Source: a virus
Taxonomy: Duplodnaviria > Heunggongvirae > Uroviricota > Caudoviricetes
Reading direction: 5' to 3' (one strand)
Length of the DNA: 44,753 nt
Virus record (IMG/VR): IMGVR_UViG_2917860307_000001
Coordinates: 1-44,753 of that record
Shown here: piece by piece, positions 4,236 to 44,377 of the stretch
Numbering within the stretch: the stretch's first letter is position 1
How the letters are laid out: every line of letters starts with the position of its first letter
Program-made: the position numbers and the translations under genes
The notes under the pieces: model-generated
What the model saw: only the letters and a program-made list of their open reading frames with translations
The model's database searches: none
Told to the model about the DNA's origin: nothing

Positions 4236-4598
4236 TTAACGACCTGCTGCGCGGAGTTTTCCGTCAGGCTCACCGGCAAGAGTCAGTAATTGTCCTTGGT
4301 CTTCCTGCAGAATAGTCAGGCGACCACCGCGATTGACATACATCGGCGTTTCGGTGGTGTCTTCTTCGGAAATTTTCCCGCGGTTAGTCGGGCGAACATA
4401 TGAGAGTTTGTGTTTGATTTTCACACGGTTCTCATCAAACGGTTCGATTTCCAGGTTGAGTGAGACCTTACCTTTGGTTTTCGTGTTCATCACACCGGAA
4501 GCGACTTCACTGAGAACTGCGCCGATTTTGGTTTCAAATACGCCGCCGTCCAGCTCCCCGATAAATGCCTGCACATCAGTACTGCGTTCGCTAGCCAT
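4236..4598 (-). CDS. YfdP-like hypothetical protein
   Basis: Start at MASERSTDVQ (ATG 4598, GAGGAG RBS) gives 120 aa; first gene of the leftward early operon. Confidence 0.5.
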   Translation of the reverse strand: MASERSTDVQAFIGELDGGVFETKIGAVLSEVASGVMNTKTKGKVSLNLEIEPFDENRVKIKHKLSYVRPTNRGKISEEDTTETPMYVNRGGRLTILQEDQGQLLTLAGEPDGKLRAAGR

Positions 4599-4646
4599 TT
4601 TGCTGCTCCTCATCATATCGACCCTGCAAGGTCGGTTAGTTTCTCC

Positions 4647-4746
4647 ACAAAACAGAGAAGAACACCTGCGGTGACAGCCGCCCGGATGGATTGGGTTATG
4701 AGCCCGTCGTCCGGTGATGCTCTTCTCTGTTTTGTAAAAAGAGCGG
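4647..4746 (-). promoter_or_regulatory. Early-left leader element: boxA-like CGCTCTTTTTA followed by an 18-bp-stem hairpin (arms 4647-4664 and 4718-4735)
   Basis: Read on the minus strand: GGTACCGCTCTTTTTAC then a 17/18 complementary inverted repeat enclosing about 53 nt, ending about 50 nt upstream of the first early-left gene. Confidence 0.3.
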
Positions 4747-5230
4747 TACCAGCCGGAAGCAAGTGTACAAACTGGTACCGCCAAAGCAGTGGCTGTTGTG
4801 GCGGGATTGTCACTCAGGCGTATGGTCAGCCTGACAATCCGGTGTCCTCAACGGGGAAAGAGTAACCCCGCCATACTTACCGCCGCGCCATTTCGCGGAT
4901 TACCACAACGCTGAGAGCACTTAGCCAGTTACGGCACCACACTTTGTCGCGGCTCCATAAATGCTCTTATCGTTGCACCCTGGTCTCTTCCCAGGCGTCA
5001 AACCGAATCGCCACGCTGGTTAGGCGTCTTATCAGCATCATCATTGACTTGCACATTCCGGCTACCTGGTTTGTTTGCCCGAGCAAGGAGTGGATTGTCC
5101 CCTTTAACGTCCCCAGACCGCTAACGACGCATGTGCCATACGCCGTGTTACAACCAAATTTTGTTTGAATCTTGCCTGTTGCATGTTTCTTTTGGATACA
5201 TTATGTATCTCAAAGGTACATTGTCAAGTA

Positions 5231-11377: not shown

Positions 11378-12373
11378 GTGACCGTGAGAGCACTACTGAC
11401 CCCTGAAATTGCCCCGCGTATGGGGATCGTATTGTTCAGGCCAGGTTCAGAGCTGATGCCCCTGTTTATGCAGGGGCGTGTCCTGCTGGAGCCTGAGCCG
11501 GAACGTTATTCATCTTTCGCCAGTGGTGCCGTTCCGGCGGCATCACAACCGCTGGCGGATGATCCTGCCGTTCGGGCCGTGTTCCGCAATGAGGCAGTGA
11601 TCCGTCGTGCTGGTGGCGTGGAATGTCTTGAAAGCTGGTTACTTCGTGAAAAAGGCTGCCAATGGCCTCATTCCGACTGGCACAGCGAGAACATGACCAC
11701 AATGCGACACGCTCCGGGCGCAATCCGTCTGTGCTGGCACTGCGATAACCAGCTGCGCGATCAGTTCACGGAACGGCTGGAATCAATGGCAACGGATAAC
11801 TGTGCCCGCTGGGTGTTGTCTGTAGTCCGTCGGGATCTCGGTTTTGATGATAACCATGCCGTGACAATGCCGGAACTGTGCTGGTGGCTGATTCGTAATG
11901 ACCTGGCGGATGCCTTACCTGAAAGCGCAGCCCGTAAGGCGCTGAGATTACCGAAACCTGCTGTGCCGTCTGTCACCCGGGAAAGTGACCTTGTGCCTTC
12001 GGTTCCTGCCACCAGCATCATCCAGGATAAAGCGAAAAATGTGCTGGCGCTGAAAGTGGATCCGGAGTCGCCGGAGTCTTTTATGTTACGCCCAAAACGC
12101 CGCCGCTGGGTTAATGAAAAGTACACGCGCTGGGTTAAGACACAGCCGTGTGCATGTTGTGGAAAGCCTGCTGATGATCCCCACCACCTGATAGGCCACG
12201 GTCAGGGTGGAATGGGTACAAAAGCGCATGACCTCTTTGTGTTGCCTTTGTGCAGAAAGCATCACGACGAGCTGCATGCGGATACCGTGGCATTTGAAGA
12301 GAAGTATGGCTCTCAGCTGGAGCTGATATTTCGTTTTATCGATCGTGCGCTGGCAATTGGCGTATTGGCGTAA
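11378..12373 (+). CDS. DUF968 domain protein
   Basis: GTG start; C-terminal Cys/His cluster PCACCGKPADDPHHLIGHG...LPLCRKHHDELH typical of DUF968 nin-region proteins. Confidence 0.6.
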   Translation: MTVRALLTPEIAPRMGIVLFRPGSELMPLFMQGRVLLEPEPERYSSFASGAVPAASQPLADDPAVRAVFRNEAVIRRAGGVECLESWLLREKGCQWPHSDWHSENMTTMRHAPGAIRLCWHCDNQLRDQFTERLESMATDNCARWVLSVVRRDLGFDDNHAVTMPELCWWLIRNDLADALPESAARKALRLPKPAVPSVTRESDLVPSVPATSIIQDKAKNVLALKVDPESPESFMLRPKRRRWVNEKYTRWVKTQPCACCGKPADDPHHLIGHGQGGMGTKAHDLFVLPLCRKHHDELHADTVAFEEKYGSQLELIFRFIDRALAIGVLA

Positions 12374-12386
12374 GTGGAGAACGAGC

Positions 12387-12941
12387 ATGAACCTTGAAGC
12401 CTTACCAAAATATTACTCCCCAAAATCTCCAAAATTGAGCGATGACGCACCGGCGACAGGCTCAGGTGGTTTAACGATTACGGATGTGATGGCTGCGCAG
12501 GGGATGGTGCAGTCGAAAGCACCGCTTGGGTTTGCCTTATTCCTGGCAAAAGTTGGTGTTCAGGATCCTCAATTTGCGATTGAAGGTCTGCTCAATTACG
12601 CGATGGCACTGGATAACCCGACATTGAACAAATTGAGTGAAGAAACCCGGTTACAGATCATCCCTTACCTTGTGAATTTTGCCTTTGCTGATTATTCCAG
12701 GTCTGCGGCAAGTAAGGCTCGCTGTGAGCATTGTGCTGGTACTGGATTTCATAATGTATTGCGCGAAGTGGTGAAACACTCCAGAAGCGGGGAATCTGTT
12801 ATCAAGGAAGAGTGGGTGAAGGAACTATGTCAGCATTGCCATGGTAAGGGAGAAGTCAGCACAGCGTGCAGAGGGTGTAAGGGTAAAGGTATTGTCCTGG
12901 ATGAAAAAAAGAACCCGGCTTCATGGTGTGCCTGTTTATAA
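12387..12941 (+). CDS. Antitermination protein Q (as read, terminates early; see downstream +1-frame fragment)
   Basis: Start MNLEALPKYY (ATG 12387); three CxxCxGxG zinc-finger repeats; position upstream of PR'-like promoter and lysis genes. Confidence 0.6.
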   Translation: MNLEALPKYYSPKSPKLSDDAPATGSGGLTITDVMAAQGMVQSKAPLGFALFLAKVGVQDPQFAIEGLLNYAMALDNPTLNKLSEETRLQIIPYLVNFAFADYSRSAASKARCEHCAGTGFHNVLREVVKHSRSGESVIKEEWVKELCQHCHGKGEVSTACRGCKGKGIVLDEKKNPASWCACL

Positions 12942-13140
12942 GATTTGTGGGCGTTGCAATGGCAACCGGTTTAGCCGTTTACCAACCACACTGGCGCGGC
13001 ATCATGTCCAGAAACTGGTACCGGACCTGACGGATTATCAGTGGTACAAAGGATATGCAGACGTTATTAATAAACTGGTTACAAAGTGCTGGCAGGAAGA
13101 AGCGTATGCTGAATCGCAATTGAGAAAAGTGACAAGATAG
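12901..13140 (+). CDS. Probable C-terminal fragment of antiterminator Q in the +1 frame
   Basis: Overlapping ORF in +1 frame beginning at the A7 run (12904-12910); carries a fourth CxxCxG repeat (CGRCNGNR). Confidence 0.35.
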   Translation: MKKRTRLHGVPVYKICGRCNGNRFSRLPTTLARHHVQKLVPDLTDYQWYKGYADVINKLVTKCWQEEAYAESQLRKVTR

Positions 13141-13171
13141 ATAATTTTCGCCGAAGATGTCGACGTGATGC

Positions 13172-13200
13172 TTGCATTTTTCAAAAAATATGGATAAGAT
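13172..13200 (+). promoter_or_regulatory. Late promoter PR'-like
   Basis: -35 TTGCAT, 17-nt spacer, -10 TAAGAT directly downstream of Q and about 45 nt upstream of a terminator. Confidence 0.45.
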
Positions 13201-13242
13201 TTTCTCAACGATGGGCCTTGTATGTCTACCGTTGGTAAATGT

Positions 13243-13268
13243 CAAAAACCCGCTGCTGAGCGGTTTTT
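13243..13268 (+). terminator. tR'-like rho-independent terminator
   Basis: AACCCGCT-GCTG-AGCGGTT hairpin (one-base bulge) followed by T7. Confidence 0.55.
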
Positions 13269-13428
13269 TTGTGCCTGATGTCTCATGAAACTATGAAATG
13301 GATTGGTGCGTTAAACATTTTTTCTTATTATCTTTTAGATTTTGGAGAGATGGTTAACGTCTGTATTCCAGAAACTCGATGGTTATTTAATAAATTAGTT
13401 TCAATGATGCTTCTAGGTTATGACTGTA

Positions 13429-13827
13429 ATGAAAAAGGTATTAATAGCAGCGATAGGTTTTTGTTTAGTTGGTTGTGCAGGTATGAAATTACCTGAGTAT
13501 TCGCAAGTTAAAGCAAGTCCGTATTATACAGATTGCCGTGCGTTTGCCATGGATGTTTATAAAAATGATGGATACAGCAAAATTGCGAAAACTACTATCC
13601 TTAGCATGGATGATGTGAAGGCTAGATATATTGTGACAGGGTGTGTAGTTGCTATGGGGAAAAACACTGTAGAGGAAATCAAAGCTGATCTCTCTGCTAA
13701 AGGGAGTTCTTTTGGGCTTATCAGTGGAGCTTGTTCTAGTGTGGCATGTCGGGTTGATGTAGAGCAGCAAATGAACGCTTATGTACTTGGTAGTTATTAT
13801 GCTGCAAATAAAAAAATTCCCGGATAA
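13429..13827 (+). CDS. Lipoprotein (moron)
   Basis: Signal peptide with lipobox MKKVLIAAIGFCLVGCAG; markedly low-GC gene flanked by terminators; alternative start at 13420. Confidence 0.6.
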   Translation: MKKVLIAAIGFCLVGCAGMKLPEYSQVKASPYYTDCRAFAMDVYKNDGYSKIAKTTILSMDDVKARYIVTGCVVAMGKNTVEEIKADLSAKGSSFGLISGACSSVACRVDVEQQMNAYVLGSYYAANKKIPG

Positions 13828-13922
13828 AATGAAAGCAGAGTTTTAAGCAAACCTTGTTTTCGATTATATGTCGAAGATAAATGTTAGTAACGGCATAATA
13901 AGTAAATATATAGCTGTGATAG

Positions 13923-13948
13923 CAACCCGCCACTGAGCGGGTTTTTTG
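13923..13948 (+). terminator. Rho-independent terminator
   Basis: AACCCGC-CACTGA-GCGGGTT hairpin followed by T6; near-copy of the terminator at 13243. Confidence 0.55.
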
Positions 13949-14069
13949 TACCCGTAAACTTGGTGCAGTACAGTAAACACGCTGGTGGTCGTGAATACTG
14001 ACTTTTTATCTTGCTGGCTTTTTAGACAAGAGTTATTGGTATGTCATGTTAACCAGAAGGGAAAAAGAC

Positions 14070-14273
14070 ATGCTAAAACAGCAAGATATGACAGAAACCG
14101 CCGCCGCAGTCCTTCATTTCTTACCTGCTGACAAGTGGGTAACGCCACGCATGATGACGAGAACTACCGGAGTAAGCGAAGCCCGGTGCCAGTTAATACT
14201 GACTCAGTTAGTTCTGGCGGGTCTGGCGAAGGATAACGGCGGGTACGGGAATAAATTCAGACGCTGCCAGTAA
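14070..14273 (+). CDS. Small putative DNA-binding protein (winged-helix-like)
   Basis: Start MLKQQDMTE (ATG 14070, AAGGGA RBS); 67 aa. Confidence 0.35.
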   Translation: MLKQQDMTETAAAVLHFLPADKWVTPRMMTRTTGVSEARCQLILTQLVLAGLAKDNGGYGNKFRRCQ

Positions 14274-14423: not shown

Positions 14424-15476
14424 ATGAAAAATACTGTAAAAATAAACAGTGTTGATTTAATCAACGCTGATTGCCTGCATTTTATTCAGTCCCTGCCTGA
14501 TGATTCCATTGACCTGATTGTTACCGATCCGCCGTACTTCAAGGTGAAACCCAACGGCTGGGACAATCAGTGGAAAGGGGACGAAGATTACCTTAAGTGG
14601 CTGGACCACTGTCTGGCCCAGTTCTGGCGGGTGTTAAAACCTGCCGGAAGCCTTTACCTGTTCTGTGGGCATCGCCTGGCATCTGATATTGAGATCATGA
14701 TGCGTGAACGTTTCAACGTGCTTAACCATATCATCTGGGCGAAGCCGTCCGGACGTTGGAATGGGTGTAATAAAGAAAGTCTGCGCGCATATTTTCCTGC
14801 CACAGAGCGCGTTCTGTTTGCTGAACATTACCAAGGGCCATATCGCGGCAAAAGTGACGGCTATGCGGCAAAAGAAAGGGAACTCAAACAGCACATAATG
14901 GCACCGCTGATATCGTATTTCAGGGATGCTCGTGCCGAACTGGGTATAACGGCAAAACAAATTGCCGAAGCCACAGGTAAGAAAAATATGGTTTCCCACT
15001 GGTTTGGTGCCAGTCAGTGGCAGTTGCCGAATGAGGCTGACTATCGGAAGTTACAGGCACTGTTTTCCCGTATAGCGGCAGAGAAGTTTCAGGAACAACA
15101 ACTGGAACAACCACACCACCAGCTGGTGGCATCTTATGATTCACTGAATCGCAAATATTCTGAATTGCTGGATGAGTTTAAATCTCTCCGGCGCTATTTC
15201 TCCGTATCAGTCTCCGTGCCTTATACCGATGTCTGGATGCATAAACCCGTTCAGTTCTACCCGGGTAAACATCCGTGTGAGAAACCGGCGGATATGCTCA
15301 GGCAAATAATCAATGCCAGTAGTCGACCTGGTGATCTGGTTGCTGATTTTTTTATGGGATCCGGTTCCACAATAAAAGCAGCAATGGCGCTGGGGCGTCG
15401 GGCCTTAGGTGTTGAGCTTGAGTCAGAGCGGTTTAACCAGACAGTGAAAGAGATAAACGAGCTGGTGGGGAAATAA
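14424..15476 (+). CDS. Orphan DNA methyltransferase (N6-adenine/N4-cytosine family, DPPY motif)
   Basis: 350 aa; motif IVTDPPYF near the N-terminus and a C-terminal AdoMet-binding-like region (DFFMGSGST). Confidence 0.8.
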
Positions 15477-15482
15477 TCTGGT

Positions 15483-15506
15483 GGCCACGTCAGGTGGCCT
15501 TTTTAT
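15483..15506 (+). terminator. Rho-independent terminator
   Basis: GGCCAC-GTCAG-GTGGCC hairpin followed by T5. Confidence 0.55.
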
Positions 15507-15543
15507 TTCCATTACACAGCACCCGCATCTGCGAGGTGGGGTT

Positions 15544-15758
15544 ATGAAATCCATGGATAAGTTAACAACGGGTGTCGCCTATGGCACCTCAGCAGGTAGT
15601 GCCGGGTACTGGTTTTACAGTTGCTCGATAAAGTCACGCCCTCACAGTGGGCGGCAATAGGTGTGCTGGGTAGTCTGGTGTTTGGCCTGCTGACGTATCT
15701 GACAAATCTTTATTTCAAGATTAAAGAAGACAAGCGTAAGGCTGCACGGGGAGAGTAA
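15544..15758 (+). pseudogene. Class II holin (S21-type pinholin), frame interrupted at a T4 run (15613-15616)
   Basis: ATG 15544 with GAGGTGG RBS gives [24 protein letters not shown] then a stop; a second frame continues [47 protein letters not shown]; together about 71 aa. Confidence 0.65.
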
Positions 15759-26227: not shown

Positions 26228-26625
26228 ACCGACATACACAAATCCGCCAGGCCGTACTGGCACGCCTTCGGGAACAGTGTGGAGACAGCGCCACGTTTTT
26301 TGACGGGCTTCCGGCATTTATTGATGCGCAGGAACTGCCTGCCGTGGCGGTGTGGCTGAGTGATGCTCAGTACACCGGAAAAATGACGGATGAAGATGAC
26401 TGGCAGGCTGTTCTGCATATTGCTGTCTTCATCCGGGCACAGGCACCGGATTCAGAGCTGGATATGTGGATGGAGAGCACCATTTTCCCGGCCCTGAATG
26501 ATGTACCGGCACTTTCCGGACTCATCGACACCCTGATCCCACTCGGTTTTAACTATCAACGTGATAATGAGATGGCCACCTGGGCGATGGCGGAAATCAC
26601 GTACCAGATCACGTACACGAATTAA
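26212..26625 (+). CDS. Minor tail protein U
   Basis: Similarity to lambda gpU (ATFFDG...PAVAV...EYTG...W..LHI.VF..AQ.PDSELD.WMES). Confidence 0.8.
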   Translation: MADPMNRHTQIRQAVLARLREQCGDSATFFDGLPAFIDAQELPAVAVWLSDAQYTGKMTDEDDWQAVLHIAVFIRAQAPDSELDMWMESTIFPALNDVPALSGLIDTLIPLGFNYQRDNEMATWAMAEITYQITYTN

Positions 26626-37724: not shown

Positions 37725-40082
37725 ATGGCAGCAGTAAAAATCTCAGGTGTGCTGAAAGATGGTGCGGGTAAACCAATACAGAACTGCACTATTCAACTGA
37801 AGGCAAAGCGTAACAGCACCACGGTACTGGTGAACACGGTGGCCTCTGAAAATCCGGATGAAGCCGGGCGTTACAGCATGGATGTTGAGTATGGCCAGTA
37901 CAGCGTCATCCTGCTGGTTGAAGGTTTTCCGCCTTCACATGCCGGGACCATTACCGTCTATGAAGGCTCCAGACCAGGTACGCTGAATGATTTTCTCGGT
38001 GCCATGACGGAAGATGATGTCATGCCGGAGGCATTGCGTCGTTTTGAGGCAATGGTGGAAGAAGCGGCACGCAACGCCGAAGCCGCCTCTCAGAGCGCAG
38101 CGGCGGCAAAGAAATCCGAAACTGCAGCGGCATCATCGAAGAACGCGGCGAAAACCTCAGAAACGAATGCAGCTAACAGCGCACAGGCGGCAGCGTCCTC
38201 GCAGACTGCATCGGCAAACTCCGCGACAGCAGCCAAAAAATCAGAAACCAACGCGAAAAACAGTGAGACAGCCGCAAAGACGAGCGAAACCAACGCAAAG
38301 TCCAGCCAGACGGCAGCGAAAACAAGCGAAACGAATGCCAAAGCCAGTGAAACTGCGGCGAAAAGCAGTCAGGATGCAGCAGCCGAAAGCGAGAGTGCTG
38401 CAGCTGGTTCTGCGACTTCAGCAGCTGGATCAGCAACTGCTGCGGCTAACAGCCAGAAAGCCGCGAAGACGAGCGAAACTAACGCAAAGTCCAGCCAGAC
38501 GGCAGCGAAGACCAGCGAAACGAATGCCAAAGCCAGCGAAACTGCGGCGAAAAACAGTCAGGATGCAGCAGCCCAAAGCGAGAGTGCCGCAGCTGGTTCT
38601 GCAACAGCGGCAGCTAATAGCCAAAAAGCTGCAAAAACCAGTGAAACTAACGCAAAGACGAGTGAAACAAAAGCAGCAGCCAGCGAGACAGAAGCAACGT
38701 CAGCCGCAACAAGAGCAGAGAATGCAGCCCGGATTGCAGAAGATGCCGCTGATCCTGCTTCTGTCCCTCCGCTTCCTGATATCTGGCTACCCTTGAATGA
38801 TTCTCTGGAAGCGATAACAGGGTATGCCCCGGGCTATAAAACAATAACCATCGGCAGTGATGAAATAACAATGCCTGTTAATGGCATATGCCAATTTAGC
38901 CGGGCTTCATCTGCAACGTATATTGATAAGTCCGGGCATATTACCGTGGCAGGGAATAACGTTCCTCGTTTTGAAAAATATGGTTTGCTGATAGAGAATC
39001 AGCGAACAAACATGTTCGTAAATAGTTTTAATCCTGATGCCTGGAATAAAAGCGGTGGTATATCTGTAACATCATCAACAGATGAATTTGAGTTTAAATA
39101 TGGACGTTTCACGGTAGGAAGCGATATAGCAGGAACGACAACAGGGAGAAATATATGCACAGTTGCTGGTAACAAAGGCATAGATGTGACTGGCGATGAT
39201 CAGTACAGTAAAGGTCCGTATGTTACCGCGTCGTTCAGGGTAAGAAGTGATCTCAATGTTCGCGCACGTATCCGTTTTGAACGGTATAACTCGGAAGGAT
39301 ACACCTTCCTTTGCGACGCCTATTTGTCATTACAGACCCATGAACTACAAATTACTGGTGGCAATGCCCAGCTATTAACAGCAAACTTTGAAATCGATCC
39401 AGGTAGTGGATGGATATACTTTCAGGCAACACTGAAATGTCTGCCAGAATGGGGAATGGTTGGTACGCAGCTGCAAATTGCAGCCGACAGAGCTGTGGGG
39501 TCTTTTGCAACAGGTGACTGGATAGAAGTAACCACCCCGCAATTCGAGTATGGTGCTTGTGCAACTTCCTTCATCATAACGACAACTGAGCCAGCGACTC
39601 GTGCATCAGATTTATGTAAATTTCCGCTGATGAAAAATATGTATACCATGCCTTTTACGTTCATGGTGGAAGTCCATAAAAACTGGTTTATTTCTCATAA
39701 TGCGGCACCGCGTGTCATTGATTCAGAAAATCACCAGTCCGGAGGCCCATTTATTATGGGGTTTGGTTCTTCTGGAACTATTAGTCAGGACGGTTATTCG
39801 TATTGCGATATAGGCGGGGCTAACCGACGTGTATATGAGTCATGCGGAGTAAGAGATCTTGTTATGGGATTCAGGGTTAAGGCTGACGGCATGACATGCT
39901 CATTTGCAAATAAGCATATAAGCACAGAAACAAAAACAGTATGGAAATATATTCGTGAAGCTGCTGTGATTCGTATCGGGGGACAAACGACGACAGGATT
40001 ACGACACCTTAATGGTCATATAAAAAACCTCCGTTTCTGGAACAGAGCATTGTCAGATACGCAGCTTAAGGAATACGTATAA
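37725..40082 (+). CDS. Side tail fibre protein (lambda Stf-like N-terminus, repetitive shaft, LamG-like C-terminal domain)
   Basis: N-terminus AVKISGVLKDGAGKPIQNCTIQLKAKRNSTTVLVNTV parallels lambda Stf; Ala/Ser/Thr/Lys-rich repeats; C-terminal motif GHIKNLRFWNRALSDTQLKEY typical of LamG-type jelly-roll domains. Confidence 0.75.
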   Translation: MAAVKISGVLKDGAGKPIQNCTIQLKAKRNSTTVLVNTVASENPDEAGRYSMDVEYGQYSVILLVEGFPPSHAGTITVYEGSRPGTLNDFLGAMTEDDVMPEALRRFEAMVEEAARNAEAASQSAAAAKKSETAAASSKNAAKTSETNAANSAQAAASSQTASANSATAAKKSETNAKNSETAAKTSETNAKSSQTAAKTSETNAKASETAAKSSQDAAAESESAAAGSATSAAGSATAAANSQKAAKTSETNAKSSQTAAKTSETNAKASETAAKNSQDAAAQSESAAAGSATAAANSQKAAKTSETNAKTSETKAAASETEATSAATRAENAARIAEDAADPASVPPLPDIWLPLNDSLEAITGYAPGYKTITIGSDEITMPVNGICQFSRASSATYIDKSGHITVAGNNVPRFEKYGLLIENQRTNMFVNSFNPDAWNKSGGISVTSSTDEFEFKYGRFTVGSDIAGTTTGRNICTVAGNKGIDVTGDDQYSKGPYVTASFRVRSDLNVRARIRFERYNSEGYTFLCDAYLSLQTHELQITGGNAQLLTANFEIDPGSGWIYFQATLKCLPEWGMVGTQLQIAADRAVGSFATGDWIEVTTPQFEYGACATSFIITTTEPATRASDLCKFPLMKNMYTMPFTFMVEVHKNWFISHNAAPRVIDSENHQSGGPFIMGFGSSGTISQDGYSYCDIGGANRRVYESCGVRDLVMGFRVKADGMTCSFANKHISTETKTVWKYIREAAVIRIGGQTTTGLRHLNGHIKNLRFWNRALSDTQLKEYV
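38275..38640 (+). repeat. Two tandem imperfect copies of an approx 170-190 bp unit within the tail fibre gene
   Basis: Repeated DNA encoding KTSETNAKSSQTAAKTSETNAKASETAAK(S/N)SQDAAA(E/Q)SESAAAGSAT...; one copy carries an extra 21-nt insert. Confidence 0.6.
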
Positions 40083-40351
40083 TGCGGGATATAACATTAC
40101 GATTCGATAACAGAGAACAGTTTAACGCAATTGTATATGACAGTGGCCTGTTCAGTCTTGAAGAAGAAAACGGGGTTCTTGTTGATGTTATTGGCTGCGT
40201 TATCGATTACGAGGAGCCAGAAAACGAAAGATGTACAGGCATTGATCGCGGTGGTTTTTTCGTAAACATGAGGATCGTTGATAGCAGTAAAAACATATCT
40301 TCTTTAATGCCTTTCATTACGACAGATCAGCATGTAAGGACATGGGCTTAA
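40082..40351 (+). CDS. Hypothetical protein (possible fibre accessory/assembly factor)
   Basis: 89-aa ORF overlapping the tail fibre stop. Confidence 0.35.
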   Translation: MRDITLRFDNREQFNAIVYDSGLFSLEEENGVLVDVIGCVIDYEEPENERCTGIDRGGFFVNMRIVDSSKNISSLMPFITTDQHVRTWA

Positions 40352-40363
40352 TGGAGTAAGACA

Positions 40364-41404
40364 ATGGTTACAAAAACAGTAATTCCTGATGACATCAAAA
40401 CGCTAAAATCCGATGTTAGTAAACTAAAAGCTGATCAAGGAAGCTATGCAACAAAATCTTATGTAGACAATAAAACAACATGGAATGGTTATTGCAATGT
40501 AATCTATGATCAAAAAACATTGCCAACAACTGGAACTATATTCAGCGGTAAGCTGCATTTGTCAAATAAGACTGGTGAAACGGAAAACGCTTATAGTGAC
40601 ATATATACCAGAAAAAATATTGATGGTACTAAAGATACAATGACGAGGATCGTCACACATAACGGGACAAAAGGTATCTTTTGGGACTTTAGTGATCTTT
40701 ACGGAGGAACTTTAATTTTCCCTGGCACTGCTGGTTATTTGAAAATGGGTAAGTGCCTCATGTCCTATGGGGATCGTGTAGATAATGCCCTGATTAAATT
40801 TGATTATACAGACACATTACAGATCAAATATGCCAATCATGGTTCGACCATGACACTAAACACACAGGGAACCGCTCACGCTGGCGTTACTGCTAAATTG
40901 TGGGGCAATTCTAGCCGTCCGGTTGTTTATGAAGTTGGTGTAGATGGTGGGGCTTTTATATTCTTTGGTCAAAAACAAACAGATGACACATATGCATTTG
41001 CTGTTAATGGTGCATGTCAAGCGACCGCATTTAACCAGACCTCTGACCGAGACCTGAAAGATAATATTCAGGTGATTGATAATGCAACCGATCGCATCCG
41101 TAAGATGAATGGTTATACATACACGCTTAAAGAAAACGGGATGCCTTACGCTGGTGTTATCGCACAGGAAGCCTTAGAAGCAATTCCAGAGTCCGTAGGC
41201 TCTACGATAAAATATAGGGACGGTGGTAGCGGATCTGAAGGCGAAGAAGGTGAACGGTATTACACTGTAGATTATTCTGGTGTTACTGGCTTGCTTGTTC
41301 AGGTAGCCAGAGAGTCAGACGACAGAATAACAGCACTGGAAGAAGAAAACGCAGAATTAAGACAAATGTTATCTGCAATTGAGGCGGCGCTTGCGTCTAA
41401 ATAA
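40364..41404 (+). CDS. Tail fibre/receptor-binding protein with C-terminal intramolecular chaperone (peptidase S74-like) domain
   Basis: C-terminal SDRDLKDNIQVIDNATDRIRKMNGYTYTLKENGMPYAGVIAQEALEAIPESV followed by a coiled coil, typical of autoproteolytic fibre chaperone domains. Confidence 0.6.
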   Translation: MVTKTVIPDDIKTLKSDVSKLKADQGSYATKSYVDNKTTWNGYCNVIYDQKTLPTTGTIFSGKLHLSNKTGETENAYSDIYTRKNIDGTKDTMTRIVTHNGTKGIFWDFSDLYGGTLIFPGTAGYLKMGKCLMSYGDRVDNALIKFDYTDTLQIKYANHGSTMTLNTQGTAHAGVTAKLWGNSSRPVVYEVGVDGGAFIFFGQKQTDDTYAFAVNGACQATAFNQTSDRDLKDNIQVIDNATDRIRKMNGYTYTLKENGMPYAGVIAQEALEAIPESVGSTIKYRDGGSGSEGEEGERYYTVDYSGVTGLLVQVARESDDRITALEEENAELRQMLSAIEAALASK

Positions 41405-41433: not shown

Positions 41434-41733
41434 GGGTAGGATGAAAATGGATATAACACCCTTACTTCATGCACTTTGTGCTGTGGCTGCGCAGCTACTG
41501 ATTGGTCTTTTTACCGGGAACTGGGCTTACGGAGCGATAGCCGGTTGTACGTTCTTCATTGCGCGTGAACACACCCAGGCAGAATATCGCTGGATTGAAA
41601 TGTTCGGACATGGCAAGCGTATGAATATGCGTGGTGGGGCGGTTTTGATCCGCGCGTGTGGGATGTAGCAAGCCTGATGGATTTTGCTGTGCCGGTGATG
41701 GCGTGTCTGCTGGTCTGGCTGTTTATCCGTTAA
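41432..41733 (+). pseudogene. Small membrane protein, frame interrupted near a G4 run (41636-41639)
   Basis: 78-aa ORF ends at 41668, while a protein-like hydrophobic C-terminus (FDPRVWDVASLMDFAVPVMACLLVWLFIR) continues in the adjacent frame to 41733. Confidence 0.4.
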
Positions 41734-41843
41734 ACATAAAAAGCCGCAGCAACTTGTCATGGCAGAATACTGCGGCTGGCTGGTGAACTTCCGATAGTGC
41801 GAGTATTGAATGATTTCCAGCCGTTATCGATTTTACGTATTAA

Positions 41844-42092
41844 TTAATGAACAAACCACTCGTCAGCAGACTCCCAGGTATCTTTCAGAGTTTCCTGAAC
41901 AAAAGTTTTAGCTGAATCTTTATCGGCGGTGCGCGTAACAGAAAGGCCATCGTTGCTGGTGGCTTTTACGATCACCTCTACATCGTCATAACGCTTACTG
42001 ATGCGTCGAGTTAATTCTTCCTTCAACGCATCCACAGCACCGTTTGGCATTTTAGTCATTTTCTCTTTGGCTATGCAGATCTCAATACGCAT
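41844..42092 (-). CDS. dinI: DinI-like DNA damage-inducible protein
   Basis: 82 aa; MRIE..IAK...P.GA.DAL..EL.RRI......V....A..N.LSV......D......ETWESAD.WFV pattern matching DinI. Confidence 0.75.
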
Positions 42093-42105
42093 AAAAATCC
42101 CTCTA

Positions 42106-42125
42106 TACTGTGTTTGTATACAGTA
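42106..42125. promoter_or_regulatory. LexA (SOS) box upstream of the dinI-like gene
   Basis: TACTGT-GTTTGTAT-ACAGTA, a CTGT-N8-ACAG palindrome 14 nt upstream of the dinI-like start. Confidence 0.6.
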
Positions 42126-42153
42126 TTATTTTTAACTGTATGAATAAACAGTG

Positions 42154-43251
42154 TCAAGAGGTCTTATTTCTGCTCCTTTGGAGTTCTTCAAAACGATTAT
42201 GTAAAGATTTTGGATACAGTTCGGTATATACCTGCCATAGCACGTTTAATGAACGATGCCCTGTAACCTGGGCGACTTCCTCAATACTAAAACCAGCCTC
42301 AAATAAGCGACTTGCCCCTTCTCTACGCAAATCATGGTATCGCAGATCTTTAATACCTAATTTGCTTCTTACCCTCTGAAATCCTGCGGTAACAGAAGTG
42401 CTGTTGTATGGAAAAATGAATTCAGATTTTTTGGGTTGTCGTTGGACGATATCCCAGGCTTCCCCAAGCAAGGCCACTTTCATATGGTTACCTTCCTTTT
42501 TACGTGGATCTTTCCTGTCTCTTACTAGTATAGATTTTTGTTCCTGGTCGAGATCTTCCCATCGTAACCGGCATACTTCTCCGATTCGCATACAGGACCA
42601 CACAGAAAATTTGAGGATATCAACGAACGGAATTTTTGAGCATTTATGAGTAGATCGTTGTTGAAGGCCTTCAATGAGCATGTCTAGTTCATCAGATGCT
42701 GGTCTACGATTACGACGATTTGATTTACCAATTAAACCAAGTTTAAGTAGATATGGACGAGCGGCTTTTGCTGGGTTTGATGTGTAATTAATTCCGTATA
42801 CAGGTTTGGCTGCATCCAGAACACTGCCAAGATAACTAACATCGTGGCTAACAGTAGCTGGACCTGCACCGGCGTTGTTTCTCAACCTGCAATGTTCTAT
42901 TACGTCATTTTCTGTTAATTCAGATAGTCTGATCGCAGAAATGTCACTATCCATAAGTAGTTCCAGCACATATCTTTTAGTGCGGCCTGCTTTACCTCCT
43001 GCATTTGGATCATTTAAATATTTGTGTAGCAAATCACGGACAGTAAGGCCGTCAATCTCGCTTGATGATGGGATTCCATACAAATCTAGTTCCATCACTT
43101 TCTGTGTACCCCATGTTTTGGCATGAGCATGTTTGGGAAAGGTTTTACTTTCCCTGTAAGTGATGACACCTTTTTCTTTAATAATCACGGTGCAACGATA
43201 GCGTGGTGTGCCATCGGATTTTAGCCGTTTCTCTATGTTATAGTACGCCAT
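42154..43251 (-). CDS. int: Tyrosine integrase (dusA-associated type)
   Basis: 365 aa; C-terminal catalytic-region pattern (R...HDLRR...VTGHRSL...Y); adjacent to and divergent from dusA. Confidence 0.85.
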   Translation of the reverse strand: MAYYNIEKRLKSDGTPRYRCTVIIKEKGVITYRESKTFPKHAHAKTWGTQKVMELDLYGIPSSSEIDGLTVRDLLHKYLNDPNAGGKAGRTKRYVLELLMDSDISAIRLSELTENDVIEHCRLRNNAGAGPATVSHDVSYLGSVLDAAKPVYGINYTSNPAKAARPYLLKLGLIGKSNRRNRRPASDELDMLIEGLQQRSTHKCSKIPFVDILKFSVWSCMRIGEVCRLRWEDLDQEQKSILVRDRKDPRKKEGNHMKVALLGEAWDIVQRQPKKSEFIFPYNSTSVTAGFQRVRSKLGIKDLRYHDLRREGASRLFEAGFSIEEVAQVTGHRSLNVLWQVYTELYPKSLHNRFEELQRSRNKTS

Positions 43252-43339
43252 TACTCAATCTCGTCATTTCAGGTTCCCATGCGTTGTGGGAACCTGTGCG
43301 GGAACCTAACGCGAGAAAAATAGCCTGAAATGTTCAAAA

Positions 43340-44377
43340 ATGCACGATAATCATGAAACACAAAAAATTAATCAAACCAGCGTGATGCCTGAAAAAACTG
43401 GTGTTTACTGGAATTCTCGGTTTAGCATTGCTCCTATGCTCGACTGGACGGACAGACACTGCCGTTATTTCCTGCGTCTGCTCTCCCGTAATACGCTGCT
43501 CTATACCGAAATGGTGACCACAGGGGCGATTATTCACGGTAAAGGTGATTACCTGGCATACAGTGAAGAAGAGCATCCGGTGGCGTTGCAGTTGGGCGGT
43601 AGCGATCCGGCGGCGCTGGCGCAGTGTGCGAAGCTGGCAGAAGCGCGCGGATATGATGAGATCAACCTGAATGTTGGCTGCCCGTCAGACCGGGTACAGA
43701 ACGGCATGTTTGGCGCGTGCCTGATGGGGAATGCGCAACTGGTGGCTGACTGCGTAAAAGCGATGCGCGACGTAGTGTCGATTCCAGTGACGGTGAAAAC
43801 GCGTATTGGCATTGACGACCAGGACAGCTATGAATTTCTCTGTGATTTTATCGACACTGTTTCCGGCAAAGGCGAATGCGAGATGTTTATTATCCATGCG
43901 CGCAAAGCCTGGCTTTCTGGTTTAAGTCCGAAAGAAAACCGTGAGATCCCGCCGCTCGATTACCCGCGTGTCTATCAACTGAAGCGTGATTTCCCGCATC
44001 TGACTATGTCGATTAACGGCGGCATCAAGTCACTGGAAGAGGCTAAAGCACACCTGCAACATATGGATGGCGTGATGGTCGGGCGTGAAGCGTATCAAAA
44101 CCCAGGCATTCTGGCGGCGGTGGATCGAGAGATATTTGGTTCCTCGGATACCGATGCCGATCCGGTGGCGGTGGTACGAGCTATGTATCCGTACATTGAG
44201 CGTGAACTCAGCCAGGGGACGTATCTCGGTCATATCACCCGGCATATGCTGGGGCTGTTCCAGGGGATTCCTGGTGCGCGGCAGTGGCGGCGGTATTTAA
44301 GTGAAAATGCCCATAAAGCGGGCGCTGACATTAACGTGCTGGAACATGCGCTCAAACTGGTAGCGGATAAGCGTTAA
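43340..44377 (+). CDS. dusA: tRNA-dihydrouridine synthase A
   Basis: 345 aa; conserved [17 protein letters not shown]... DusA sequence; first approx 30 residues look prophage-derived. Confidence 0.9.

Follow-up and report, generated by a model that had tools for sequence, protein, structure and literature searches.

A low-GC lipoprotein cassette between paired terminators downstream of Q in a lambdoid prophage

The stretch of DNA analyzed here (the window; 44,753 nucleotides, positions 1 to 44,753 of IMG/VR virus record IMGVR_UViG_2917860307_000001) is a lambdoid prophage with an integrase gene at 42154-43251 and the host gene dusA at 43340-44377. On its plus strand, a gene for a late antiterminator of the lambda Q type (12387-13140) is followed by a PR'-like late promoter (13172-13215), a terminator in the position of tR' (T1, 13243-13270), a candidate promoter (13303-13331), a gene for a small lipoprotein (13420-13846) and a second terminator (T2, 13924-13949). 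The subject of this report is the cassette of about 670-680 bp (13280-13960, plus strand) that begins 10-12 nt 3' of T1 and carries the lipoprotein gene and T2. An earlier reading of the letters, called the original prediction below, had proposed that this cassette is a terminator-bounded moron, an extra unit of the kind reviewed in ‘The moron comes of age’ (PMC3594210).

The cassette and its empty site

The cassette stands out first by its base composition. The G+C (GC) content of positions 13280-13950 is 36.4%, compared with a mean of 50.7% (standard deviation, 5.2%) for segments of the same size across the window. Only 0.09% of these segments are as low, and the cassette is the lowest stretch of its size. 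The GC profile that the original prediction had named as a check therefore agrees with its description of an AT-rich gene.

Alignment with phage SfV revealed an empty homologous site. In SfV, T1 plus GTGCCTTGATGT is joined straight to TGGCAGTACGGTAAACACG, after which a gene for a 75-aa protein follows; in the window, in phage Ayreon and in an Stx2k phage, about 680 bp (13280-13960) intervene. The flanks are collinear. The order of genes up to the cassette (RusA, KilA-N, DUF968, Q) is the same in SfV, mEp460, Ayreon and the Stx2k and Stx2c phages, and positions 13100-14050 of the window are 96-97% identical to these phages. The phages that carry the cassette are mEp460, Ayreon and the Stx2c and Stx2k phages. 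Among 5426 complete E. coli genomes, 215 (about 4%) hold the cassette, always on the chromosome, and 196 hold the uninterrupted junction of the SfV type.

As marks of a moron we took presence or absence at one site in collinear relatives, a deviant base composition, and a promoter and a terminator of its own. The site is filled in 215 genomes and empty in SfV and 196 others, the GC content of the cassette departs from that of the window as given above, T2 closes the cassette at its 3' end, and its promoter is a candidate known by consensus match. Furthermore, as described below, it recurs in unrelated backbones and has an aligned promoter-like site in Salmonella, so that the central claim of the original prediction, a moron after PR' and tR', was upheld. 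Close relatives lack the lipoprotein gene (SfV and the 196 genomes that share the module), and holin, endolysin and Rz are encoded separately in the phage, which argues against an ordinary conserved component of the lysis cassette, the outcome that would have undone the prediction. In addition, homologues in Rac-like prophages and in phage-plasmids sit away from lysis genes. Judged by these sequence comparisons, the cassette is a genuine, widespread and ordinary moron, an inserted accessory unit.

In the Stx2k phage phiSTEC1575-Stx2k and the Stx2c phages LC727876-90, PR' is separated from stx2 by the cassette and both terminators. To reach the toxin genes of these phages, transcripts from PR' must therefore extend across T1, the lipoprotein gene and T2. 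The lipoprotein gene is unannotated in the Stx2c phage records, and the published annotation of Ayreon already marks both terminators and the open reading frame (ORF). Public annotations thus show the element as a hypothetical protein with a terminator on either side.

The second terminator closely resembles the first, as had been predicted. A terminator scan of the region found 6 sites, against 1.4 expected in shuffled sequence, and both T1 (stem 13250-13263, T-run to 13270, −10.8 kcal/mol) and T2 (stem 13924-13943 with 7 pairs, T-run to 13949, −12.0 kcal/mol) were among them. In the window, 25 of 29 aligned positions are identical between the two, and in Ayreon a 24-nt core, AACCCGCCACTGAGCGGGTTTTTT, is identical in both. 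A 20-nt pattern taken from T2, with up to 3 mismatches allowed, matched only the T1 and T2 sites in the 44.7 kb, where 0.01 matches were expected. A repeat search of the window did not return the pair, because a 1-bp deletion splits the seed; the pair was seen by pattern search and pairwise alignment.

The flanks of the two terminators resemble different alleles. T1 and its flank resemble the allele of the SfV type, and T2 and its flank resemble the allele found behind other Q modules. Phage PhiR40_1 also has T2 with its 3' flank, GTACCYGTAAACTTGGTGCAGTACAG, after another Q module (PF06530), and in many prophages it is this allele of the terminator, the common one, that stands before the 75-aa gene. 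In 1408 of the 5426 E. coli genomes, the boundary formed by terminator and 75-aa gene was present, preceded by Q modules of several kinds. In a Salmonella prophage, a copy of the T2 type stands to the left of a homologous cassette and a different terminator to its right, where the 3' end carries a terminator-like hairpin, CCCGCATTGCGCGGG plus TTTTT (−14.8 kcal/mol). The pattern scan of the Salmonella locus did not list this hairpin, probably owing to its shorter T-run.

On the strength of these alignments, T1 and T2 are homologous module joints rather than chance look-alikes. The cassette may have arrived bringing its own terminator, or two phages may have recombined at their terminators. The boundary shared by so many prophages is consistent with a terminator acting as a recombination joint, and the homologous flanking terminators illustrate how intrinsic terminators may serve as joints between modules in lambdoid mosaicism.

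The lipoprotein and its relatives

The lipoprotein gene likely starts at 13420 or 13429, and the codon of its lipobox cysteine is at 13474. As read in the window, the ORF ends at 13827 and encodes 135 aa, whereas the frame of the family, read through in all relatives, would end at 13846 and encodes 141 aa. The signal peptide, MKKVLIAAIGFCLVG, is followed directly by C, giving MKK-VLIAAIGFCLV-G-C with the lipobox LVGC that the original prediction had read in this AT-rich island. A positively charged N-terminus, a hydrophobic stretch and a lipobox of the form [LVI][ASTVI][GAS]C are thus all present within the first ~25 residues. The lipobox cysteine is invariant in all homologues, including one that is 28% identical, with the box written as LVGC, IVGC, MVGC, MAGC, STGC or LSGC; at the level of sequence, this supports the lipoprotein call. 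UniProt labels some members of the family ‘Lipoprotein’. Most homologues have Ala at residue +2, that of Buttiauxella has Ser and the distant member P0015 has Val; Asp is never seen there. By the +2 rule of Enterobacteriaceae, the protein is therefore predicted to be a lipoprotein of the outer-membrane type.

The claim that the gene belongs to no recognizable family did not survive. A PHROG search placed it in phrog_4748 with an E value of 7.5e-91; that family is annotated as of unknown function, as are the weaker matches. Four further cysteines are invariant across the homologues, and conserved motifs include SPYYxxCRxFA, VYKNDGYSK, GCVVxMGK and a C-terminal KKFPxxMKxEF. Pairwise ratios of nonsynonymous to synonymous substitution (dN/dS) were 0.08-0.22, with synonymous sites saturated. 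These ratios indicate that the gene is real and under strong purifying selection.

In an AlphaFold2 model of the mature part (pLDDT, the per-residue confidence score, 78; pTM, the predicted template-modelling score, 0.76), four long helices are accompanied by a short N-terminal helix and a small hairpin. The mature protein is thus modelled as a compact, generic bundle of four to five helices, in which the four invariant cysteines probably form two disulfides; the conserved C-terminal tail would be flexible. A small, helical, disulfide-containing periplasmic protein is a typical profile of immunity proteins. These predicted features, namely a small periplasm-facing helical protein with disulfides and with the highly conserved surface motif VYKNDGYSK, would also suit an orphan immunity protein or inhibitor directed against an attacker that acts in the periplasm, such as an amidase or muramidase effector of the type VI secretion system, a colicin or pesticin-type enzyme, or a phage lysozyme. 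We regard that function as very unlikely.

The family is small in number of sequences and broad in its carriers. Protein searches (5.8 and 1.84 billion entries) returned only about nine clusters, from E. coli, Salmonella and Buttiauxella plus one outlier of 28% identity, and when 1.84 billion representatives were searched exhaustively with a hidden Markov model (HMM), the total came to 8 proteins. At least 1000 contigs carry the sequence from E. coli, and the same holds for that from Salmonella. A tblastn search added phage-plasmids of about 110 kb from Klebsiella, Citrobacter and Cronobacter, with 204 plasmid records, and the Buttiauxella member lies in a phage-plasmid of about 110 kb as well.

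The settings of these homologues differ, although the gene brings a non-coding stretch of its own upstream. In the Salmonella prophage, the homologous cassette follows another Q (PF06576/PF06530) and again lies between two terminators. In Rac-like early regions, the family member stands beside vapBC and is divergently transcribed, so that it needs a promoter of its own there. In the SSU5-like phage-plasmids it is found beside replication genes. P0015 lies in a transposon-rich region, and its neighbors gave no clue to function. By comparison of these contexts, the lipoprotein gene is mobile between unrelated phage backbones.

Two other lipoprotein genes were seen near relatives of the cassette. 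In the SSU5-like phage-plasmids, a second small lipoprotein of 99 aa, with the lipobox LSGC and containing cysteine, is encoded 10 nt downstream of the family member (L005, 6446-6745; L013, 2931-3230), and the two may form a two-gene operon. In PhiR40_1 (L012, 1930-2376, minus strand), an unlike, reverse-oriented protein of 148 aa with the lipobox ISGC and without a Pfam family is encoded between the PF06530-type Q and the T2-like terminator. This second case suggests that the slot after Q repeatedly collects lipoprotein morons. Kinship of our lipoprotein to either of these proteins was considered and set aside, as hhalign found similarity in the signal peptide only, or none.

A small lipoprotein moron of outer-membrane type in lambdoid prophages recalls bor, and elements carrying the family are common in clinical E. 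coli, Salmonella and Klebsiella. The gene might accordingly encode a host-interaction or virulence factor of the Bor, Iss or TraT type, conferring resistance to serum or complement or changing the interaction with the host in some other way, and playing no part against phages. The profile comparison with lambda Bor, however, aligned only the signal peptide and lipobox (22 columns, probability 43%), and the Pfam search gave no match, Lambda_Bor included. We consider a factor of this type quite improbable.

Transcription of the cassette and the state of this copy

The late control unit upstream of the cassette is of lambda type. Q matches Pfam family PF03589, as does lambda Q, and the intact 250-aa homologue in Ayreon matches it at 9.6e-54. 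In the window, the Q gene is read as two overlapping ORFs (12345-12941 and 12841-13140). The PR'-like promoter begins 32 bases 3' of Q and is the top-scoring sigma-70 match of its interval; it consists of a −35 element TTGCAT (13172-13177), a 17-nt spacer, a −10 element TAAGAT (13195-13200), 6 nt and AACGATGGG (13207-13215), which comprises the −10-like pause element AACGAT and GGG. Lambda PR' (NC_001416) reads TTGACT-17-TAAATT-6-AACGATGGG, so that both the spacing of the hexamers and the distance to AACGATGGG are identical. An intrinsic terminator, T1, follows, and the leader RNA that ends there would be about 62 nt long. The promoter and terminator that had been predicted downstream of Q are thus both present with lambda-like geometry, and together with a PF03589 Q (frameshifted in this copy) they make up a predicted Q/PR'/tR' unit. 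By analogy with lambda, we infer that the element in PR' acts in pausing and in loading of Q. Compared with Ayreon and SfV, T1 in the window has one G fewer (13261) and a C-to-T change; the calculated stability of the Ayreon copy is −14.1 kcal/mol and that of the SfV copy −10.7 kcal/mol. Searches for known RNA families and tRNAs in the interval found none, and the PR' leader was without an Rfam match.

Within the cassette, a candidate promoter, TTGGTG-17-TATTAT (13303-13331, plus strand), was recognized by its match to the consensus. It has the best sigma-70 score in 13265-13440 (9.3, compared with 8.0 for PR'). At the aligned position, the Salmonella cassette has TTGGTA-18-TATCAT. The Salmonella alignment, taken together with the Rac-like and phage-plasmid contexts, favors a reading of the cassette as an autonomous transcription unit.

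One RNA has been reported from a related prophage. The small RNA sRNA-17 of E. coli K1 RS218 is 193 nt long, is repressed by ArcA and is encoded on an mEp460-like prophage (PMC7719688). We rejected it as a transcript of the cassette, since the published primer and alignment sequences map to 4743-4763 of the window instead (PMC7719688). An exact 21-nt match at these positions on the plus strand places sRNA-17 at about 4737-4930; its matched start falls in the early-left region and overlaps an ORF on the opposite strand (4236-4784).

The position of the gene is open to a different reading. The lipoprotein is encoded by the first ORF after PR' and tR', on the late strand, it occupies the same position in the Salmonella phage behind another type of Q, and the cassette promoter is a consensus match. 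The gene might then lack a working promoter, be expressed solely through Q-dependent read-through of T1 and serve in the lytic cycle, for instance by masking the receptor so that progeny are not lost on cell debris, as with T5 Llp, or by modulating the breakdown of the envelope. Several observations speak against such a late gene: the family also occurs in Rac-like early regions and beside the replication genes of phage-plasmids, far from late operons; about half of the prophages that share this Q module lack the cassette; a plain member of a late operon would not need T2 directly after it; and holin, endolysin and Rz are already present. This explanation seems to us unlikely, although it deserves some weight.

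The copy in the window differs from its close relatives by single bases at 12904, 13261, 13810 and 15612, and also at 26623, 27418, 29721 and 32239, several of them in the structural region. The run of seven A at 12904-12910, in place of six, frameshifts Q; the change at 13261 shortens one arm of the T1 stem; an extra A in 13810-13816 (also A7) replaces the lipoprotein C-terminus FPDKMKAEF by IPG; and the indel at about 15612 splits the holin ORF (15481-15660 and 15621-15758). All 29 full-length E. coli matches of the cassette that were listed span 652 nt, compared with 653 in the window, a difference that agrees with A6, not A7, in the lipoprotein gene.

Should these indels be genuine, the copy in the window may be without function. 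The broken Q, the altered tR', the lost lipoprotein C-terminus and the difference in length from the listed E. coli copies would then describe a dead relic in a decaying prophage. Nearly all of the indels, however, are gains or losses of one base in homopolymer runs, the signature of sequencing error rather than of decay, and the region showed neither an insertion sequence (IS) element nor a large deletion. The pattern in the sequence thus points to sequencing error, with a decaying prophage as the alternative, and we judge a dead relic improbable.

The resident genes downstream lie outside the insertion. In this late leader, a winged-helix-like protein of 75 aa (14046-14273, plus strand) is followed by an N6/N4 DNA methylase (14424-15476, plus strand), with matches to phrog_331, PF01555 and PADLOC MTase_II between them; SfV, which lacks the cassette, has both genes. 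The location at the ‘classic Q-lysis junction’ given by the original prediction is a little loose, as these two genes follow the cassette, which lies about 1.7 kb upstream of the holin. Elsewhere in the window, 671-nt segments with 38-42% GC mark other islands at 1-1500, 39700-41200 and 41700-43400. These include tail-fibre-distal genes (40082-41404) and the integrase end beside dusA, and may hold more accessory genes.

Proposed role and comparison with known systems

These observations lead to the following reading. The cassette would be a self-contained moron of about 670 bp, comprising a candidate promoter of the sigma-70 type, about 85-90 nt of leader, the gene of a lipoprotein whose precursor would measure about 14-15 kDa, and T2, and it would supply an envelope factor expressed in the lysogen. 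In the lysogen, transcription from the always-active PR' would end at T1 and leave only a short RNA, the lipoprotein gene would be driven independently by the cassette promoter, and T2 would keep cassette transcription out of the methylase and lysis genes that follow. Upon induction, RNA polymerase modified by Q would pass both T1 and T2, and the lipoprotein would also be made, at high level, as the first late product. The protein itself would leave the cytoplasm through Sec, receive its lipid at the invariant cysteine and be cleaved by signal peptidase II, after which Lol would deliver it to the inner leaflet of the outer membrane, where it would face the periplasm. We hold this reading of the cassette as a whole with moderate confidence.

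The anatomy of the cassette, its insertion status, its mobility between backbones, the purifying selection and the lipoprotein signature were all observed here. Promoter activity, localization, disulfides and function are proposed from them. Most likely, the lipoprotein is an envelope-located factor of lysogenic conversion that protects the carrier cell, and our first guess at how it might do so is by keeping other phages from entering, either at the outer membrane or in the periplasm. Superinfection exclusion and serum resistance, the functions that had been suggested for it, are guesses.

Several findings weigh against this reading. The cassette promoter is predicted from its match to the consensus, the count of promoter matches in the region was not above that in shuffled sequence, and the promoter is not in the same position in the Rac-type and phage-plasmid contexts. 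The copy in the window has lost the conserved lipoprotein C-terminal tail, and its Q is broken. With regard to an exclusion role, searches with the lipoprotein against Pfam (E ≤ 1), NCBIfam and PADLOC-DB v2 gave zero matches, and a PDB profile search gave chance-level matches only (uL14m and a leucine-rich-repeat protein). No catalogued defence or exclusion family was matched (PADLOC, 0; PHROG matches all of ‘unknown function’), and our literature search found no paper on the gene. Known receptor-blocking lipoproteins such as Cor and Llp are usually linked to phage receptor-binding genes. The lipoprotein gene is unlinked to tail genes in every context seen, which weakens a model of self-exclusion.

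A broader proposal, which we put forward tentatively and think possible rather than probable, is that phrog_4748 founds a class of lipoproteins so far undescribed, borne by phages, located in the periplasm or the outer membrane and built as a two-disulfide helical bundle with a conserved C-terminal FPxxMKxEF tail. By binding a conserved component of the envelope, such proteins might protect lysogens of E. coli, Salmonella and Klebsiella from a common envelope-directed threat, either the entry of heterologous phages or a toxin that acts in the periplasm. If so, the spread of the gene through lambdoid, Rac-like and SSU5-like elements would mark it as a broadly useful, portable gene for defence or fitness.

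The cassette itself is a textbook-style moron whose architecture adds nothing new, and its interest lies in a strongly conserved protein without a recognizable fold. Its carriers comprise about 4% of complete E. coli genomes, many Salmonella, about 200 Klebsiella phage-plasmids and the Stx2c and Stx2k phages. Should the protein turn out to act in exclusion or envelope protection, it would matter for the prediction of host range in phage therapy and for the contribution of prophages to clinical Enterobacteriaceae.

Morons of lambdoid phages were reportedly defined for HK97 and HK022 by Juhala et al. in 2000. Like those morons, the cassette is an extra unit of deviant composition that is present or absent at one site in close relatives, carries a promoter-like site ahead of its gene and an intrinsic terminator behind it, and moves among unrelated backbones. 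Unlike them, it lies between two homologous terminators, one of which doubles as tR', and its promoter and its expression in the prophage are predicted ones.

The likeness to lambda bor is that of a small lipoprotein moron of lambdoid phages with a predicted outer-membrane location. The two proteins share no sequence kinship beyond the signal peptide and lipobox in the hhalign comparison described above, and ours is a predicted helical bundle. They also differ in placement: lambda bor follows Rz on the opposite strand, whereas the cassette gene follows tR' on the late strand.

Cor (phi80, N15, HK022) and Llp (T5) are likewise small phage lipoproteins, and it is by analogy with them that we propose action at the outer membrane. 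The cassette protein is about twice their size, and in none of the contexts seen is its gene linked to tail or receptor-binding genes. The Pfam, PHROGs and PADLOC scans assigned it to no annotated exclusion family, and no direct comparison with Cor or Llp was made.

Finally, the cassette resembles the cargo that Stx phages carry after PR' and tR'. In both cases the extra genes occupy the interval from Q to the holin, and in lysogeny a terminator a short way downstream stops transcription from a constitutive PR'. The short PR'-tR' RNA of Stx phages is StxS (PMC7547250). The corresponding leader in the window would measure about 62 nt, compared with 194 nt for the 6S RNA of lambda.

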